IMG/VR virus record: IMGVR_UViG_3300014204_000130
Location: 1-64,000 of that record
Source: a virus
Lineage: Duplodnaviria; Caudoviricetes
Strand: one strand, 5' to 3'
DNA length: 64,000 nucleotides
A program made the translations under genes and the position numbers. Within the stretch, counting starts at the first letter, position 1, and every line of letters starts with the position of its first letter. Below are positions 18,196-52,486 of the stretch, piece after piece. The notes beneath the pieces are model-generated. The model was not told the origin of the DNA. It searched no databases and saw only the letters and a program-made list of their open reading frames with translations.

Positions 18196-19257
18196 TTAAA
18201 CTTCCGTTCCTGCTTCAATCGATGCAAGTGTATTGACAATTGTTACGATTACATCCGTCAATGCAGTTTCATCATATTTTGCGTTGAAGGTCAGAGGAAG
18301 ATTCAAACCTTGAAAAGACGCAATTTCTGGAGCCGTTCCAGAAAGTTTGCAACTTGGGAATTTAAAACTTAGTTTCTGACCAAGCCCGTTATTGAACATG
18401 AACTTCACACCGCAAATAGTTCCGGCAGAATACAACTTGTACAGATAGTCATTTTCAAAGAACACCGTGAAGTCGCCTGAACATGCACGTTTACCATATT
18501 GAGCAGAAGCTCTGAATGCCGATCCAAGCACGTAACCGTCGGTTTCGATGTTGTTTGCAATGTTGATGTTACCGGCTGTTACAAATCCCAATGGATGGTA
18601 ATTTGCATCACCATCATCGTCAAGAGTTCCACTGGTATCGATAGTGCCATCTGTGGTTTTCATGGTCGTGGAAATAACACATTGATAACCCGTGAATCCG
18701 CTGATCGTTGAAGCGGCTGGGGTTCCCGTTCCCATTCCATCGGCGTCGGCAATTGCTTCTTCTTTTCCGATAAATCCAAAAGTGATTTCATGCAAACCTT
18801 CCTGAACCAAGGAAATTGCCATGGAATTGACGCGGCAGCCCTTATAAATCAGGAACTTGTCGATGTCGGGGAATTCTTTCTGAATGGTAAGACCTTGGAA
18901 GAAACCCGGAGAACCTTTCAGAACGTGAGTGTAGTTCGGAGCGGAACCACTTGTCACCAAGGTTGGATTAAGACCACCCGTTTTTGGATTCCCGAGAAGA
19001 TGAAGGAAAAACAATTCCAATCCTTCCGGAATCAAATCGGAAACGATATTGCCTTCAACCGCTTTGTTACCATCGCCCAACCCGATGGTGCAACGATAAG
19101 CATTGATCATATCGGATTCGAAGTTATTCTTTGAAGATTTCAAAGATTCATTCTTCAACCCAACAATGCGAATTACTGCATCATCAGCATAGGGAGTTCC
19201 CCATACCTGTTCTTGTTTTACCGTCAATACTGCATTACTACCAGCAGCACGAGTCAT
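18196..19257 (-). CDS. Major tail tube protein
   Basis: 353 aa; YKGCRVNSMAISL, GKRACSGDFTVFF motifs; position before chaperones. Confidence 0.85.
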   Translation of the reverse strand: MTRAAGSNAVLTVKQEQVWGTPYADDAVIRIVGLKNESLKSSKNNFESDMINAYRCTIGLGDGNKAVEGNIVSDLIPEGLELFFLHLLGNPKTGGLNPTLVTSGSAPNYTHVLKGSPGFFQGLTIQKEFPDIDKFLIYKGCRVNSMAISLVQEGLHEITFGFIGKEEAIADADGMGTGTPAASTISGFTGYQCVISTTMKTTDGTIDTSGTLDDDGDANYHPLGFVTAGNINIANNIETDGYVLGSAFRASAQYGKRACSGDFTVFFENDYLYKLYSAGTICGVKFMFNNGLGQKLSFKFPSCKLSGTAPEIASFQGLNLPLTFNAKYDETALTDVIVTIVNTLASIEAGTEV

Positions 19258-45687: not shown

Positions 45688-46806
45688 ATGATATTCGTAA
45701 TAAATGGAAACTCTGGCGTAATAATGGGACAATTGACAGAAGTGAAATTTGAAAATGAAGATATTGCTTTCCAAATTCCAATAACTGAAGAACGTAAATT
45801 TGTTGAGAATGTCATTTATCATATGAATATTGGAAATGTTCGACATGTTGTTCTTGAAGATGGAAAATTTATTCTCCCGAAAGGAATGTTGAAAAATGTA
45901 TATTTCTGGGGAAAGGAATATGAATAAAGAGGAAATTTCAATTCTACTGTATATAATTGCAATAATGAACTGGTCGAAATATCAGATGAAAGAACTTGGG
46001 AAAGTACAACGGATAGACAGTCTTTTGTTGGACAGTTTGTGAAAAAATTACAATGAATGGTATTGAAGATGGATCACATATAGATATTACAACTTTGGAC
46101 GTATATATCTGTCCCAAATGTGGAACTATGAAATCAGGGAAGGAGAAGTAGAAAAATATGAACTGTTGTCGATGTAATTTCCGAGAAGCAGAAGAACATG
46201 CGCCATATTGTCATATCTGCGATAAATTTTACAGTAAGGAAGAAGTGAATCGTATTCTGAAATACGTGGAGGACAATAAATACACAAATTGTAAAATGGT
46301 ACAGCAAGGAGACTTACAGGTAAAACTGTCTCTCGCCAAAAGTTATAAGGAGTTGGAAGAACATGATCGAGAATTAGAAAGAACTGCCAGTTTAACCTTC
46401 CGAAGATTGCCGGGAGATAAACGATTAATTTTCATGATAGTGAAGAATGATAACCGGGAAACCGTCGAATAATTTCGTCCAACAAAAGACAGTTTGTGAA
46501 AAAATCACAATGTATAAGGAATCTGACATGATAACCCTGAAACCCCTCCCGTATAAATTGGCAAAAAGAATATTCCTTTCAGACCCCGGAGGAATGTTCC
46601 ATCAGAGAGGAGTAAGATTGAACTTCGGTATAAAATATGGAATACAAGGAACGGACATATCGATCATCAATATTCTAAGAGATGTGAATTACGACCATTA
46701 CAAATTTGCATTCTATTGGTATCCGGGAAAGGAAATTAATTTCCGGGATATTATGCTTAGAAATAAATTGGAGACGCTGATAAATGGAGGAGTAGAATTT
46801 TCGTAA
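45688..46806 (+). other. Small hypothetical ORFs (45688-45927, 46158-46472, 46528-46806)
   Basis: AAGGA/GGAG RBSs. Confidence 0.5.
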
Positions 46807-47546
46807 TATTTTTTGACAGTCTTTTAAAAGACGGAATTTCCCAGTAGGACCGTAAACTGTGAATTTGGAATTCCGTCTTTTGTTGGACAGAATTTTGAAA
46901 GTTGAGAATTTAACATGTCACTTTGTCCAAGATGTAAAGTAAATGAGAAACAAATATTTAAGACAGGTAAAGTCGGTGCATATTGTAGAGAATGCCAGAA
47001 ACATTACCATGATAGGTATTATTATGGTGAAGGTGGTAAACCTGTGAAGATTCCGAAACCCCCGAAACTTCCAAGAATCCCGAAAACAATTTGTCCAAGA
47101 TGTAAAGTAAATGAGAAACATAAATTTCCAAATTGCATGGCTGCTTATTGTTTGGTATGCGTCCGAGAAGTGGATAAGGAAACACATAAACGAAGAATGT
47201 TGGAAGATCCCGTCGAGATAAAACGAAAACATCACTTGGCCGTTCAAAGATATCAGAGGAAGACAGATCCTGAAAGATTTCGTCGATATAGAAAGATGGG
47301 TATGAAGGAAATAGACACTTCATTGACATTGGCATTCGTAATGGATTGGTTTAATGGTGAATGTCAGGAATGCTTTAATATCTGTGAATTCGGAGGAGAG
47401 TATAAACCAACAATTGATTATATAGTTCCGTTGAAGTCTGGAGGACAACATGTGAAGGAAAACGTAAGGCTGTTGTGTAGAAGTTGTATGCAAATAAAAT
47501 GGAGAAATTCTATTTCATAATATTTTTGGACAGTCTTTTAAAAGAC
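46804..47546. repeat. 29-bp direct repeats (46804-46832, 47518-47546) flanking HNH-like gene
   Basis: TAATATTTTT(T/G)GACAGTCTTTTAAAAGAC, one mismatch. Confidence 0.85.
46915..47520 (+). CDS. Zn-finger HNH-fold protein, catalytically degenerate
   Basis: Two CPRCKVNEK repeats; CQEC...IDYIVPLKSGG.H..ENVRLLCRSCMQIK. Confidence 0.75.
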   Translation: MSLCPRCKVNEKQIFKTGKVGAYCRECQKHYHDRYYYGEGGKPVKIPKPPKLPRIPKTICPRCKVNEKHKFPNCMAAYCLVCVREVDKETHKRRMLEDPVEIKRKHHLAVQRYQRKTDPERFRRYRKMGMKEIDTSLTLAFVMDWFNGECQECFNICEFGGEYKPTIDYIVPLKSGGQHVKENVRLLCRSCMQIKWRNSIS

Positions 47547-47587: not shown

Positions 47588-48301
47588 GTCCAACGTTGGA
47601 ATTTGAGAGCCGAAGGCTTCCTGTTGAGATGGGGTTGTCTAAGATTGGACAGTTATAAATTCGTTGCTTGTCTAAGATTGGACTCCTGTTGAGATGGGTA
47701 GAGAATTGGGAGGAAAAAGAATGGGTTACGGATGATATGGAAAAGTTGGTTATGCATCCATATACCACATGAAGTACTGCCGTACCCTCCGCATTTTCCG
47801 GAAATGCTCGCATTATTTTATTCCACCGTACAACCCGCATCAACACACGTTCTCCACAGTCGTACATATAGCACCGTACTAGCTGTACCGTACTCTCATA
47901 CCTTGCAAACGCTGATCAATACTCATTTTCCACGAATCAATGATATGCACGCCGAAAGTACAAGTCGATATGGTTGGTGCATTATGCACGGCAATGAAAA
48001 GTGGAAAACTCGTAGGAATGGCTTAAAATGGAAAAAGGTAGAATTGCCTGGGAATGGTCGGAAAAAACTTGTCCAGCAAAAGACTGGGAAAAACTGATAC
48101 TCCTGAGTATCAAAATTTTAAAATGCGGTTTTGTAACCAGTCCGTGAAATATTGCAGTCTTTTAAAAGATTTTTCGGAATGGCCATTCCTATTGTATTGG
48201 CGATTCAAAAATTCTCTCCTCTTCTCCATGGGGAAGTATAGAGTAGGGGGAAGGGTAAGATTCTATATTGAAAAAATAGTTATCGAGAATGAAGAAAACA
48301 T

Positions 48302-48330
48302 TTGACAAGTGCTAGCACTCGGAGTAACGT
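48302..48330 (+). promoter_or_regulatory. sigma70 promoter with palindromic operator AGTGCTAGCACT
   Basis: TTGACA-N17-TAACGT. Confidence 0.65.
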
Positions 48331-48336
48331 ATTTCT

Positions 48337-48848
48337 TGTAAGTGCATTTTAAAACTTACTCCCTTCTTGGAAGGGGATTGCCCAAAAATTTGAAAAGTGA
48401 ATCGGCAAGAGTAGACGAAAGGCCAAAAATCTCTCCCCCGCCGGAAACGGCGAAAAACCTAGCTTCAGGGGAGGTAAAGTTTATCAGGATACAACGCCTT
48501 AGCATCCGTCTACTATCCAAAACGTGATTAAAGTGTCACGTGTCGGAACGGCGCAAGGATACGGCGATATCTCGAAAGTCTCCCGAAGTAGAAAATCAGA
48601 GATGAGTAGAATACCGTAAGCGTATTAAATGGCAAGAGGTAAGATACCCGGCCACCCGCAAGGGTAAAAGTGAACCGATATACAAGTGATATCACGGGCA
48701 ATGGTATAACCTACCCTCTCCCCCTACTCTCTCGTGAGAATGTCGGAAGGACGAAAGTATACCAAAGTGAATGCGGATAGCTAGAAAAATGCGTGTTGTA
48801 GTAAGCTTGGTAACTGTTTTTCGTCATGCGATACCCTTACCGATTCAC
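48337..48848 (+). ncRNA. Large structured non-coding RNA candidate, family not recognised
   Basis: Promoter directly upstream, no credible ORF, closing stem 48397-48405/48840-48848, many nested stems, GNRA hairpins, possible pseudoknots. Confidence 0.65.
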
Positions 48849-48857
48849 AACGTTCTT

Positions 48858-49224
48858 TGAAAAGTGCATCGGGAAAACCCCTTTCTACTCAGTAGTAAAA
48901 ATCATTCCCGTTTCAGGGAATGATAAATTAATTTAAAAGGAGTCAATATGAAAAACAATATCATTCTCCCTGAAATTTTCGGCAAGCTTACTTCCGACAA
49001 CGCCGTGGTTCAGAATACCAATGAGGCATACAAGCGCGGTATTGCCATGCAAAAAGCAGTAAAGGAAGCTGAAAAAACGGTAAAGTTGGCTAGCGATTCC
49101 TTTCAAGCCGAACTCATTGCGCGTGCTTCTGACTTACACGTGGTCATTCTGACCATGAAAGCATCTACCATTACCAAGTAAGCACTTGTGACCTGACTTC
49201 CGGTTTTTCCCGATGCACTTTTCA
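48858..49224. repeat. Perfect 20-bp inverted repeat (48858-48877/49205-49224) enclosing a small gene
   Basis: TGAAAAGTGCATCGGGAAAA / TTTTCCCGATGCACTTTTCA. Confidence 0.9.
48948..49181 (+). CDS. Small helical hypothetical protein (77 aa)
   Basis: AAAAGGAG RBS. Confidence 0.75.
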   Translation: MKNNIILPEIFGKLTSDNAVVQNTNEAYKRGIAMQKAVKEAEKTVKLASDSFQAELIARASDLHVVILTMKASTITK

Positions 49225-49375
49225 TCCCGGCTCATGTTGCTTGTATGCGTTCGGCTTACTGGTTCTTCAGTTTGCGCGTGCTGCATGTTTTCATGAGCCG
49301 GTTGTCCTGTTCTCTTCTGTTTCTCGTATCGGATTTTTTTCCGGACAACATTTTTTCCGAAAGGAGATTGCCAAA

Positions 49376-49774
49376 ATGAATACACTTGTAGAATTGAAAA
49401 AATCAATTCAGGCTTGCAAGGAAGTTATCTCACTTTGCAAGTCGAGTAATGGGGAATATTGTCTCTTGGCAATCTCTCCGAGAAAAACGGGATTTGCCCG
49501 GAGTATGTTTTTCCGGGCGATTCAAAACAATGTCCGTTCCATTCTACCCAAAGGGGTATATGGAACATTCATGGAAGATGGGGAACATGTTACGGTGGAA
49601 GTATCGCCGGAACATGTTCCTTGTCTGGTAGAAAGAATGGAAAAGAAATACATTGTTTCCATTCTGTCTGATTCAAGGATTGACGAGAGACAATCCTTAT
49701 CACCACGTGAAACACAGTGCAAGAAAACAAGACGAGTTACCGCTTGCACTTCCTCTACTCGGACAAATAAGTAG
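49376..49774 (+). CDS. Hypothetical protein
   Basis: AAAGGAG RBS; start MNTLVELKK. Confidence 0.65.
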   Translation: MNTLVELKKSIQACKEVISLCKSSNGEYCLLAISPRKTGFARSMFFRAIQNNVRSILPKGVYGTFMEDGEHVTVEVSPEHVPCLVERMEKKYIVSILSDSRIDERQSLSPRETQCKKTRRVTACTSSTRTNK

Positions 49775-49831
49775 GGAGAAATTCCCTACCATGTTTTCCC
49801 GGTTTAAAAATTCATTCTCAAAATAGGTTTT

Positions 49832-49927
49832 TGTATCTTTTCCAGATCTTTGGAGGGATACAAAAACCTTGTTGTCGTTCCCGGAATAATCTGTATCTTT
49901 TCCAGATCTTTGGAGGGATACAAAAAC
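49832..49927. repeat. Two identical 36-nt hairpin repeats with a 24-nt spacer (CRISPR-like mini-array)
   Basis: TGTATCTTTTCCAGATCTTTGGAGGGATACAAAAAC at 49832-49867 and 49892-49927; repeat is certain, CRISPR identity is not. Confidence 0.8.
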
Positions 49928-50126
49928 ATTGCATTTTGCAATGTCCACCAAAAGATGCACAACGGTTTATCATTTCCGTTGTCATCTTGCATCTTTCTTC
50001 AGTTAAAAATGATAAAGATCATTTGCAGGCCGTTTCAACGACGGTGACTGCAACGGCTTCAATGCCGTGAAATGATATGTATCCGGTTCGTTTCAGAACT
50101 GGAAAATTCGTAAAGGAGGTGTCATC

Positions 50127-51530
50127 ATGACATCTCAAAACAACGTCGCCAACTTAATCGGAAGTCTTCCGGCTTCCGTAAAAAATATTGCGACCGCCGT
50201 TTCGAAAGTCGGCGGTCGATCGTTTCTGATCGGGGGAGCCGTTCGCGACTTCTTCCGGAACGGCTCCGACCCTAAAGATTTCGACCTTGAAATCCATGGG
50301 TTGCAACTGGAAACCCTGAAAGGGGTTCTCGACGGTCTTGGAATGGAAACCAAGACCGTCGGAGAATCCTTCGGGGTTCTCAAGGTTCGCGACGAGGAAG
50401 GGAACGACCTTGACATCTCCCTTCCTCGTCGAGACAACAAATGTGGCGTCGGCCACAAGGGGTTCACCGTCGAAGTGGACCCCAACATGACTATTCGGGA
50501 AGCTTGTTCCCGTAGGGATTTCACCATCAACACAATGATGGTGGATATCCTCACAGGGTCTATCGAAGACCCATTCGGAGGATTGGAAGACCTCCAAAAG
50601 GGAATCCTTCACCATACCTCGGAGCAATTCTCCGAAGACCCATTACGGGTTCTCCGGGGAATGCAATTCCTTTCCCGGATGGGATTCCGGGCTTCCCAGG
50701 AATTGGAGGAAACCTGTTCAAAATTGGTTTCCTCCTTCTCCGAACTTCCCAAGGAAAGAGTTTGGGAAGAGTGGAAGAAGTGGGCTGCAAAAGCCCAATC
50801 TCCTTCGAAGGGATTGGAATTTCTCCGGAATTCCGGATGGGTTTCCAACTTTCCGGAGTTGGAGGCACTCATCGATCTCAAACAAGAACCCTCCCATCAT
50901 CCCGAAGGGGATGTGTGGGAACACACGCTGCATACGGTCGATGCAGCGTGTAAGATTGCCGGGAGGGAAAATCTCCCGAGTGACCGGAAAGTTGCCCTTA
51001 TGTTAGGGGCACTTTGCCACGATTTCGGTAAGGTAACAACCACCGAAGTTATCGATGGGGTTATCACATCCAGGAAACACAACGTAGCCGGGGAAGAACC
51101 AACCCGGTCATTCATGGCGCGGATAGGTGCGCCAAAAGACCTCACCGAAGAGGTCGTCCATCTGGTCCGTGAACATATGATTCACGTCTTCGGTGAACTG
51201 ACGGACAGCGTTGTTAAAAAGCTGTCCTCCCGGATCAACGGGAAAACCACCGTAATAATGGTTTCACATGTGATCGAGGCTGATCACGGTGGCCGACCTC
51301 CATTCGCCGCCGTTCATCCTTGTCCCCAAATCCTGGAAATGGCAGCGAGATTGAATGTTCTCGCCGCACAACCGAAACCTTTCCTGACCGGACGACATCT
51401 CATCTCGCTCGGGTTCAAACCCGGTCAGGAAATGGGAAAGGTTCTCAAGGAGCTTTTCGACCTTCAACTGGAGGGAAAGATTGCCTCGGAGGAGGAGGCA
51501 ATCACATTCGCGAAAACAACTCGGGATTAA
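50127..51530 (+). CDS. cca: CCA tRNA nucleotidyltransferase/poly(A) polymerase family with HD domain
   Basis: GGAVRD, DFDLE, RRDFTINTM, EDPLRVLR, ERVWEE; HD: HHPEGDVWEHT, LCHDFGK. Confidence 0.92.
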   Translation: MTSQNNVANLIGSLPASVKNIATAVSKVGGRSFLIGGAVRDFFRNGSDPKDFDLEIHGLQLETLKGVLDGLGMETKTVGESFGVLKVRDEEGNDLDISLPRRDNKCGVGHKGFTVEVDPNMTIREACSRRDFTINTMMVDILTGSIEDPFGGLEDLQKGILHHTSEQFSEDPLRVLRGMQFLSRMGFRASQELEETCSKLVSSFSELPKERVWEEWKKWAAKAQSPSKGLEFLRNSGWVSNFPELEALIDLKQEPSHHPEGDVWEHTLHTVDAACKIAGRENLPSDRKVALMLGALCHDFGKVTTTEVIDGVITSRKHNVAGEEPTRSFMARIGAPKDLTEEVVHLVREHMIHVFGELTDSVVKKLSSRINGKTTVIMVSHVIEADHGGRPPFAAVHPCPQILEMAARLNVLAAQPKPFLTGRHLISLGFKPGQEMGKVLKELFDLQLEGKIASEEEAITFAKTTRD

Positions 51531-51645
51531 TCCTCTCCCATGCATCCACGATCTTGTGGAAGGAATGCATTCACGTCGAGTCGTGACATGGGAATTGCAA
51601 ATTCTGTCTTTTGTTGGACAGAAAATTAAACGTAGGAGAATCTAT

Positions 51646-51840
51646 ATGGAAAATTTTGACATTCATTTCAACGGTTCTGTTCGGCCTACAATTTCCGACT
51701 TCGAATGGAAGCGGAAAAAACAGGAACGGGAATTCAACTTCAAAACCAAACGGAATGACGACAAGAGGAACAAGCCTCTCCGGAACGTCGGATTCCGTGC
51801 TCTCTTCACGTATGCAACGGAGGAATCCGACAATGAATAA
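51646..51840 (+). CDS. Small basic hypothetical protein
   Basis: AGGAG RBS; MENFDIH... Confidence 0.6.
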   Translation: MENFDIHFNGSVRPTISDFEWKRKKQEREFNFKTKRNDDKRNKPLRNVGFRALFTYATEESDNE

Positions 51841-52486
51841 TCATAAAATTCTTCAAAAACTCCATGCGTGTTCGGAAGCCGTAAAATGGGCTTCACAGTT
51901 TCCCACGTTACAAGAGGCATGGAAATCATGTCCTCGCGGGGATTGGATGTTGTGGGTAGCGTCCAAATTAAAAATTGACCAACGAGCACTATTCCTCGCA
52001 AGAGGACAATGTGCAAACACTGTCCGGCATCTCATGAAAGATGCCAGAAATATCGCGGCGGTGGATGCAACCATCGCCTTCGGCAAAGGGGAAATCCCAG
52101 AGATTCCAAAAGATGTCATTGCAGCAGCATATGCTGCTGCTGCTGATGATGCTTCTGCTTATGCTTCTGCTTATGCTTCTGCTGCTGCTTATGCTGCTGC
52201 TGTTGCTGCTGATGATGCTTCTGCTTATGCTTATGCTTCTGCTGCTGCTGATGCTGCTGCTTATGCTGCTGCTTATGCTGCTTCTGCTTATGCTTCTGCT
52301 TATGCTTCTGCTGCTGCTTATGCTGCTGCTGTTGCTGCTGATGATGCTGCTGATGCTGATGCTGCTTATGCTGCTGCTTATGCTGCAAGAAGCGAAAATA
52401 GACAGAAAACCGCAAATATCTGTCGGGAAATTCTAACCGATGAGGTATTCTCAAAGTTGAAAAAATTGGAGGATTCCGACGAATGA
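51833..52486 (+). CDS. Phage protein with Ala/Tyr low-complexity tract
   Basis: GGAGG RBS; ACSEA..W...AW..CPRGDWMLW; AAAYAAA repeats. Confidence 0.75.
   Translation: MNNHKILQKLHACSEAVKWASQFPTLQEAWKSCPRGDWMLWVASKLKIDQRALFLARGQCANTVRHLMKDARNIAAVDATIAFGKGEIPEIPKDVIAAAYAAAADDASAYASAYASAAAYAAAVAADDASAYAYASAAADAAAYAAAYAASAYASAYASAAAYAAAVAADDAADADAAYAAAYAARSENRQKTANICREILTDEVFSKLKKLEDSDE
52121..52388 (+). repeat. GCT/TAT/GAT low-complexity coding repeat
   Basis: Direct reading. Confidence 0.9.

Follow-up and report, generated by a model that had tools for sequence, protein, structure and literature searches.

A 64,000-nucleotide (nt) stretch of phage DNA, referred to here as the window, is the first 64 kilobases (kb) of a 108,145-base-pair (bp) IMG/VR virus record from an uncultured phage, with a CheckV completeness of 88%. 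On its + strand, the window carries a locus of two consecutive units, each closed by a long-range stem whose 5' strand begins inside a copy of the same short sequence, the box. Unit 1 would be a structured non-coding RNA (ncRNA) of about 450 nt, and unit 2 a small messenger RNA (mRNA) with a conserved hairpin, a Shine-Dalgarno (SD) sequence and the coding region of a helical protein of 77 amino acids (aa). The stems are present, the first is conserved between two phages through compensatory changes, the box is the boxA of Bacillota ribosomal RNA (rRNA) operons, and in genuine rRNA (rrn) operons boxA likewise forms part of the closing helices. The locus is probably a single phage transcription unit laid out on the plan of a Bacillota rRNA operon, in which Nus-dependent antitermination and cleavage by RNase III would operate as they do in that operon.

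Two long-range helices and their covariation

The box occurs as TTTGAAAAGTGAATCGG at 48389-48405 and as TTTGAAAAGTGCATCGG at 48856-48872. The two differ by one base, and the + strand has no other copy in the window or in the rest of the 108-kb genome; because the box is unique to this locus, it does not belong to a dispersed element. Helix 1, the leader-trailer helix of the ncRNA, has its 5' strand at 48397-48413 and its 3' strand at 48832-48848, and is seen in the pairing, in folds and in covariation. It consists of nine perfect pairs (GTGAATCGG/CCGATTCAC) followed by three and three more across two mismatches, which gives 15 of 17 positions paired across 418 nt. Helix 2, recognized from its pairing, has its 5' strand at 48858-48879 and its 3' strand at 49202-49224. 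Positions 48858-48877 form 20 perfect Watson-Crick pairs with 49205-49224, and beyond a 1-nt bulge (T49204) C48878 pairs with G49203 and C48879 with G49202. The 321-327 nt enclosed by this stem hold a strong SD and the 77-aa open reading frame (ORF), and nothing else. With its 20 bp, stem 2 is the longest long-range perfect inverted repeat in the 108,145-bp genome, where the runner-up has 14 bp; the maxima in ten shuffled sequences were 13-15 bp. The stems are real, and lie beyond what chance produces.

The two stems are related to one another. In the same register, A48400-T48845 of stem 1 corresponds to C48867-G49215 of stem 2, and three more pairs differ between the stems in compensatory fashion. 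An earlier note on this DNA had described both boxes with both 3' partners, covariation between those partners and a perfect 20-bp stem in unit 2; each is found where it was placed, and the covariation goes beyond the A-T to C-G change to the three additional pairs. An alternative pairing can join the 5' box of unit 1 to the 3' arm of unit 2 and matches 16 of 18 positions; because the boxes differ by a single base, the cognate pairings are favoured over this one. Minimum free energy (MFE) folds contain both stems if the RNA is taken to start at about 48300-48389. The interiors of the two units are dissimilar, and the ncRNA has no significant internal duplication.

Further evidence for helix 1 came from a second phage. 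An exhaustive HMMER search of 1.8 billion representatives found a single homologue of the 77-aa protein, P0124, which is also 77 aa long and is 42% identical over its full length. A word-indexed search of 5.8 billion proteins returned nothing beyond the query itself and P0124, and there were no relatives in IMG/VR. P0124 is encoded on L129, a 962-nt contig that is syntenic with the window locus and presents, in order, an upstream element, a promoter, leader hairpins, a box, a non-coding stretch, a 3' partner, a diverged second box, a hairpin with the loop GUUUCA, an SD and the 77-aa homologue. The first box of L129, TTTGAAAACTACATCG, is followed by 401 nt without an ORF and then by a perfectly complementary 3' arm, so that stem 1 of L129 pairs 180-198 with 600-618 at 19 of 19 positions. 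When the register is counted from TTTG, 7 of the 13 pairs shared with stem 1 of the window differ, all on both sides, and none is broken. Because all seven differing pairs are compensatory, helix 1 is under selection. The comparison of stem 2 of the window with stem 1 of L129 adds six further double changes, and five pairs of a UNNAUCG core are constant across the stems compared. In a close relative of the phage from wastewater run X3 (an RNA or DNA run that covers only 48651-48884 of that relative), A48843>G turns a U-A pair into U-G on the + strand, or into A-C on the - strand. As read from these sequences, the changes in the stems are features of selected helices read on the + strand.

Other searches for the locus gave no further examples. 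A blastn search of phage records found no relatives of it. Patterns of the box gave 28 matches in viral contigs and 87 in metagenome contigs, all of them lone chance matches without wider similarity, and neither the L129 box nor the conserved upstream element had a match in viral contigs.

The covariation bears directly on two proposals in which the repeats would act as DNA. The first, offered as an alternative in the earlier note, is that inverted repeats bound an invertible or mobile segment, resembling a miniature inverted-repeat transposable element, at 48858-49224 and perhaps at 48397-48848, which would switch the 77-aa gene. Perfect 20-bp inverted repeats flanking a small gene with its own SD are what such a segment would look like. 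However, neither Resolvase (PF00239) nor Phage_integrase (PF00589) was found in the 108-kb record, which is 88% complete, and only one orientation and no inverted joints were seen in contigs from two DNA runs (X1 and X2), with the limit that contigs hide rare variants. Moreover, the window's stem 1 contains mismatches, a phage with a protein only 42% identical keeps the arrangement, and the box has an identity at the level of + strand RNA. An invertible segment is therefore highly improbable, and this part of the note's proposal is not sustained.

The second proposal is that the repeats are operator sites, with three or four copies of GAAAAGTG(A/C)ATCGG serving a DNA-binding regulator, of phage or host origin, that would loop or repress the early region. 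Copies in both orientations within 850 bp beside an early promoter, a further partial copy at 48666-48677, and a perfect inverted repeat without the G-U signature of RNA would all suit such a regulator. Protein sites, however, need no complementarity over 19-22 bp, and the arms of L129 have changed at seven positions yet remain complementary to each other, rather than being held to a fixed consensus. The copies also sit precisely at the unit boundaries, and no conserved gene for a DNA-binding protein lies alongside. This explanation is very unlikely. With arms that changed together in L129, no recombinase found in the record, a single orientation in the contigs and a box that is not dispersed, the DNA-level readings are weaker than one in which the stems simply close an RNA, which is weighed below.

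The box as boxA of rRNA operons

The element at 48852-48866, GUUCUUUGAAAAGUG, contains the exact Bacillota boxA core UUCUUUGAAAA at 48853-48863, and the same core is found in the first box of L129 at 174-184. The boxA-like element of unit 1, AAAAAUUUGAAAAGUG at 48384-48399, is a degenerate version whose L129 orthologue has the exact core, GAUUCUUUGAAAACUA. In both phages the boxes precede unit 1 and unit 2 and lie downstream of promoter candidates conserved in position, in what would be one transcript as read from the sequence. In Bacillus subtilis, the boxA consensus of the rrn leader is AUGAUCUUUGAAA, binding of BsNusB was observed by nuclear magnetic resonance, and a hairpin stands immediately before boxA (PMC13753749, 2026). 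The leader of the window, at 48338-48375, has two hairpins in local folds (48338-48360 and 48361-48375) ahead of the first box, at the position of boxB in rrn leaders, and hairpins likewise separate promoter and box in L129.

Several comparisons with cellular genomes place the box in rrn operons. The commonest named groups among matches to GTTCTTTGAAAACTA are Bacillaceae, Paenibacillus, lactobacilli and mycoplasmas. The motif belongs to the classic mycoplasma primer set, and GTTCTTTGAAAACT is the conserved part of a standard detection primer (PMC3019172). That primer targets the 16S-23S spacer. The 15-mer of the second box of the window, GTTCTTTGAAAAGTG, is present in 11 of 401 genomes in the phylum of Kineothrix alysoides (genome G001, locus L151; Bacillota) vs one control match. 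In one genome of that phylum (G168), the 16S-23S spacer boxA, 43 nt before the 23S gene, is identical to the window over 18 nt (48852-48869). Two Neobacillus genomes carry the motif twice per rrn operon, 83-108 nt before 16S and 86-104 nt before 23S, and in one of them (G002) about 1753 nt separate the copies in every rrn operon.

The Neobacillus operons also show how boxA relates to the helices. The boxA 15-mer opens the 5' strand of both leader-trailer helices, and pairing of boxA with the 3' flank starts at its first base, in the 16S and 23S helices alike. Because boxA opens both, the Bacillota rrn operon is itself a pair of consecutive units with related long-range stems. The phage helices begin at the UGAAAA or GAAAA of boxA. 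Conservation extends to UUCUUU, the portion of the box beyond the helix, so pairing alone is not sufficient to account for conservation of the box. The likeness to rRNA operons put forward in the earlier note is thereby made specific, in that the box at the 5' foot of each helix is the rrn boxA of Bacillota and the stem below the first has compensatory changes. Since the boxA motif is weak evidence by itself, the case rests on its position and its conservation.

Two readings of the box as a promoter were considered and rejected. As part of a sigma-70 promoter, the box offers a fair -35 hexamer (TTGAAA) but none of the four copies has a -10 at a distance of 16-18 nt. The same failing argues against a Bacteroidota -33/-7 promoter, as do the strong SDs.

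A simpler explanation of the stems is that they are mere closing helices, giving protection against exonucleases or nucleating the fold as in 6S RNA, transfer-messenger RNA (tmRNA) and RNase P RNA. The second box would then derive from an old duplication of the stem, the likeness to boxA would be a coincidence in an A/T-rich genome, and neither Nus factors nor processing would be involved. What covariation proves is the pairing, and neither cleavage nor Nus binding follows from it; degenerate sequences are seen in two of the four boxes, and the boxA 11-mer also arises elsewhere in the genome by chance-like events. On the other hand, UUCUUU, the 5' half of the box, is conserved despite being unpaired and outside the helix, the 18-nt identity is to a genuine spacer boxA, and the position of the box with respect to the helix matches that in rrn operons. 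Enclosing an entire mRNA in a helix would also be unusual as a folding device. While closing helices of this kind would account for the pairing, this explanation is unlikely to be the full one.

Several observations weigh against the rrn-operon plan. The first box of the window is degenerate (AUUUGAAAA, lacking the C, with one core mismatch), and the second box of L129, with the 5' arm UUGAUAAUUCAAUACGGGAAAC, has two core mismatches. Two further exact boxA cores, TTCTTTGAAAA, occur on the - strand at 18452 and 31129, in the sense orientation of late genes, where they are probably coding coincidences of Phe-Phe-Glu-Lys-type codons. Pairing in rrn operons takes in all of boxA and includes G-U wobbles, whereas in the phage only the 3' half of boxA enters the helix. 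Stem 2 is entirely Watson-Crick, with zero G-U pairs, as an inverted repeat maintained at the DNA level would also be. When 48230-48300 is included in the RNA, the MFE fold displaces stem 1 in favour of another pairing. Evidence from covariation is limited to stem 1, because L129 ends 13 nt past the stop codon, before the site of the 3' arm of stem 2. Finally, the nearest cultured relatives of the phage portal protein infect Rhodothermus, Flavobacterium, cyanobacteria and proteobacteria, at only 25-28% identity, which does not fix the host clade.

The proposed transcription unit and its surroundings

If the locus is an rRNA-operon mimic, a promoter at 48302-48330 would drive a leader with hairpins followed by the two consecutive units, and in each unit the 3' half of boxA would run into a 5' helix strand paired with sequence just past the end of the unit. 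In cellular operons, boxA RNA recruits NusB-S10 and, with NusA and NusG (and SuhB and S4 in E. coli), gives a termination-resistant complex that holds the leader at the RNA exit (PMC8632103). This complex has been proposed to deliver the leader to its downstream complement, creating an RNase III site (PMC8632103), and the leader-trailer helices are essential for 30S formation in E. coli (PMC10250234). By analogy, the emerging phage boxA would bind host NusB-S10 and, with NusA and NusG, convert the polymerase into an rrn-type antitermination complex able to pass 450 nt of untranslated RNA without termination driven by Rho or by hairpins. The 5' strand would stay tethered near the RNA exit until its 3' partner was made, favouring the long-range helix over misfolds. 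The second boxA would re-arm the polymerase, and helix 2 would close the small mRNA.

The finished helices (15-22 bp in the window, 19 bp in L129) would then be substrates of the host nuclease that cuts pre-rRNA stalks, RNase III or possibly Mini-III; no RNase III gene of its own was found in the phage record. Cleavage, which is suggested by the length of the helices and by the analogy with rrn, would release the ncRNA and the small mRNA separately, each with paired, protected 5' and 3' ends. The strong SDs fit a host with SD-dependent initiation and, together with the type of boxA, point to a Bacillota-like host. A broader and more tentative possibility is that the phage hijacks the whole host rRNA line (rrn-type promoter, Nus complex, leader-trailer helices and pre-rRNA nucleases) as the first thing in infection, in order to make a new class of large ncRNA and a small helical protein that works with it, with helix 2 as an undescribed route to an end-paired, protected mRNA.

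The ncRNA of unit 1 has its body at 48414-48831, which folds and lacks a long ORF; the longest ORF of the unit is at most 61 aa. Including the stems, unit 1 spans 452 nt in the window and 439 nt in L129. The MFE z-score of the ncRNA is -3.8 in the window and -6.5 in L129, and hairpins capped by GNRA loops are found on the + strand only. In a sequence alignment the interior is about 43% identical between the two phages, with length and strong predicted structure kept, and a 17-nt apical motif, UCCCGRAGUNNAAAAUC, is common to both at a similar distance from the stem. Rfam 15 gave no match at the gathering score in the 64 kb, and none of relevance at E values up to 10 in 48100-49400 or in L129, with the phage RNA families ROOL and GOLLD included. 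The predicted ncRNA thus belongs to no catalogued family.

In unit 2, a 9-bp hairpin with the hexaloop GUUUCA (48901-48924, + strand) stands 12 nt before the SD, and was delimited by comparison with L129 (about 670-692) and the X3 relative. The window, L129 and the X3 relative have identical loops, and four of the nine stem pairs differ in compensatory fashion between the window and L129. This hairpin is a candidate protein-binding (boxB-like) element or translational control element. The SD, AAAGGAG, is at 48936-48942 and the 77-aa ORF at 48948-49181. The protein is predicted to be all-helical, with two helices, one of them long. It belongs to no family, its predicted model had no Foldseek match in the PDB, and the matches in the structure atlas were generic helical proteins. 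Its gene follows the ncRNA in both phages, and this conserved adjacency is its sole link to the RNA.

Upstream of the units, alignment with L129 revealed a conserved non-coding element on the + strand at 48228-48301, G-rich at first and then A/T-rich, with an UP-like part beside the -35. It is the best conserved part of the locus, 81% identical to positions 1-70 of L129 vs 43-53% elsewhere, and is unique in the genome. A 2-nt indel shifts the frame, which shows that the conservation is not one of protein sequence. The element may act as an UP or activator region, or may form the genuine 5' portion of an RNA that is longer than unit 1. The G-rich part can pair with a C/U-rich segment of the ncRNA at 48698-48736, with 12 perfect pairs (AGAGTAGGGGGA/TCCCCCTACTCT) and a duplex energy of -37.5 kcal/mol vs -23.9 +/- 3 for shuffled sequences; the same segments of L129 (1-70 and 500-514) pair more weakly, at -25.7 vs -21.1 +/- 2.8.

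The promoter candidate at 48302-48330, recognized by reading the sequence and by its position in L129, is TTGACA-17 nt-TAACGT with a palindrome in the spacer; its -10 is too weak for a scan with the consensus. L129 has a promoter-like TTGCTT-17-TATATT at the aligned place (74-102), again with a palindromic spacer. The two palindromes differ in sequence and are both symmetric (AGTGCTAGCACT in the window, GATAGCTTATC in L129), and each is a possible operator. Directly after helix 2, a stem-loop at 49227-49301 with a 10-bp base (CCGGCTCATG/CATGAGCCGG) is followed by a T-rich tract, and this is possibly the end of the unit.

The virus record was assembled from a landfill metagenome, and a near-identical copy of the phage is present in a groundwater run. 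Up to about 32.6 kb, the - strand encodes structural proteins, including a T4-type portal, a major head protein (relatives all at most 36% identical) and a terminase; genes thereafter are on the + strand. The locus is in a gene-poor part of this + strand block, 0.9 kb upstream of the gene for a CCA-adding enzyme (50127-51530). That gene encodes a full enzyme with an HD domain, whose nearest relatives (about 50% identity) belong to other large phages; one of these relatives adjoins a Thg1-like gene and a TnpB. No similar RNA was found in the phages with these relatives (L037-L041), and a 1.8-kb gene-free stretch of L038 is unrelated. ARAGORN detected zero transfer RNA (tRNA) genes in the window and one odd tRNA-like gene in the whole record, at 80538-80633, with an anticodon loop read as 'gtaa'.

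Other features of the region are recorded here in their own right. Palindromes of 14 nt with the form GTC-N8-GAC (GTCTTTTAAAAGAC, GTCCAACAAAAGAC and variants) occur at 46020, 46477, 46819, 46875, 47533 and 48157, between small early genes and around an HNH endonuclease gene (46915-47520). Two copies of a palindromic repeat of about 36 nt lie at 49825-49930, downstream of a 132-aa ORF whose product has no relatives in IMG/VR, and contigs of the source run break exactly there, as at repeats. A 291-aa ORF at 51611-52486 contains a long repeat region of Ala, Tyr, Asp and Ser (AYASAYASAAAYAAA...) and matches no family.

Comparison with known systems

The literature searches brought up no case of leader-trailer helices that carry an rrn-type boxA and enclose a phage ncRNA and an mRNA, and nothing usable on boxA in phage T7. 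Among boxA-led transcripts outside rrn operons, CRISPR arrays and the suhB leader share with the phage locus the use of boxA to keep polymerase going on untranslated RNA (PMC13753749, PMC5725501). These cases differ in being gammaproteobacterial and in having no leader-trailer helix. ROOL (RF03087) and GOLLD (RF01183) resemble the ncRNA as highly structured, GNRA-rich phage RNAs of several hundred nt near a gene related to RNA repair or tRNA, here the CCA-adding enzyme. In contrast, the ncRNA had no match to their covariance models at E values up to 10, is smaller, and is known from two or three examples.

The parallel with T7 early RNA, also drawn in the earlier note, holds in part. In both systems, elements of double-stranded RNA would separate the products of an early transcript and leave stable ends. 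The likeness is looser beyond that point, since the RNase III sites of T7 are local hairpins with an internal loop between genes, whereas here the ends of each unit pair across 320-420 nt. Similarities also exist with the nut sites (boxA-boxB) of phage lambda, with N and the RNase III-processed N leader, where a phage also uses the host boxA on an early transcript. Unit 2 follows the nut order of boxA, a hairpin with a conserved loop, and a small early gene. However, no arginine-rich protein like N was recognized here, the 77-aa protein has no family, and the phage boxA is of the Bacillota type. The phage element is coupled to helices that close whole units, and nut sites are not.

The Bacillota rrn operon provides the most complete match. 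Phage and operon share the boxA core, with one copy before each of two consecutive units, and in both boxA runs into the 5' strand of a long-range helix formed with the 3' flank of the unit. In both, a hairpin precedes the first boxA and the sequences of the two helices within one operon resemble each other. Helices of rrn operons are long and irregular with many G-U pairs, whereas those of the phage are shorter and perfect (19-22 bp); binding of Nus factors and cleavage would follow in the phage by analogy. If this reading is correct, it would account for how phages express long untranslated RNAs without premature termination or misfolding, and a host-type boxA running into a long-range helix could serve as a signature by which to find new phage RNAs and to guess at the host clade of phages that have not been cultured. 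It would also represent a natural module for end-protected RNAs in Bacillota, and the layout makes the RNA boundaries and the required host factors directly testable. The main difference lies in what is enclosed: the operon encloses rRNAs, whereas the phage would apply the complete rrn design to two non-ribosomal products, an unclassified RNA of 450 nt and, more unusually, a protein-coding message.

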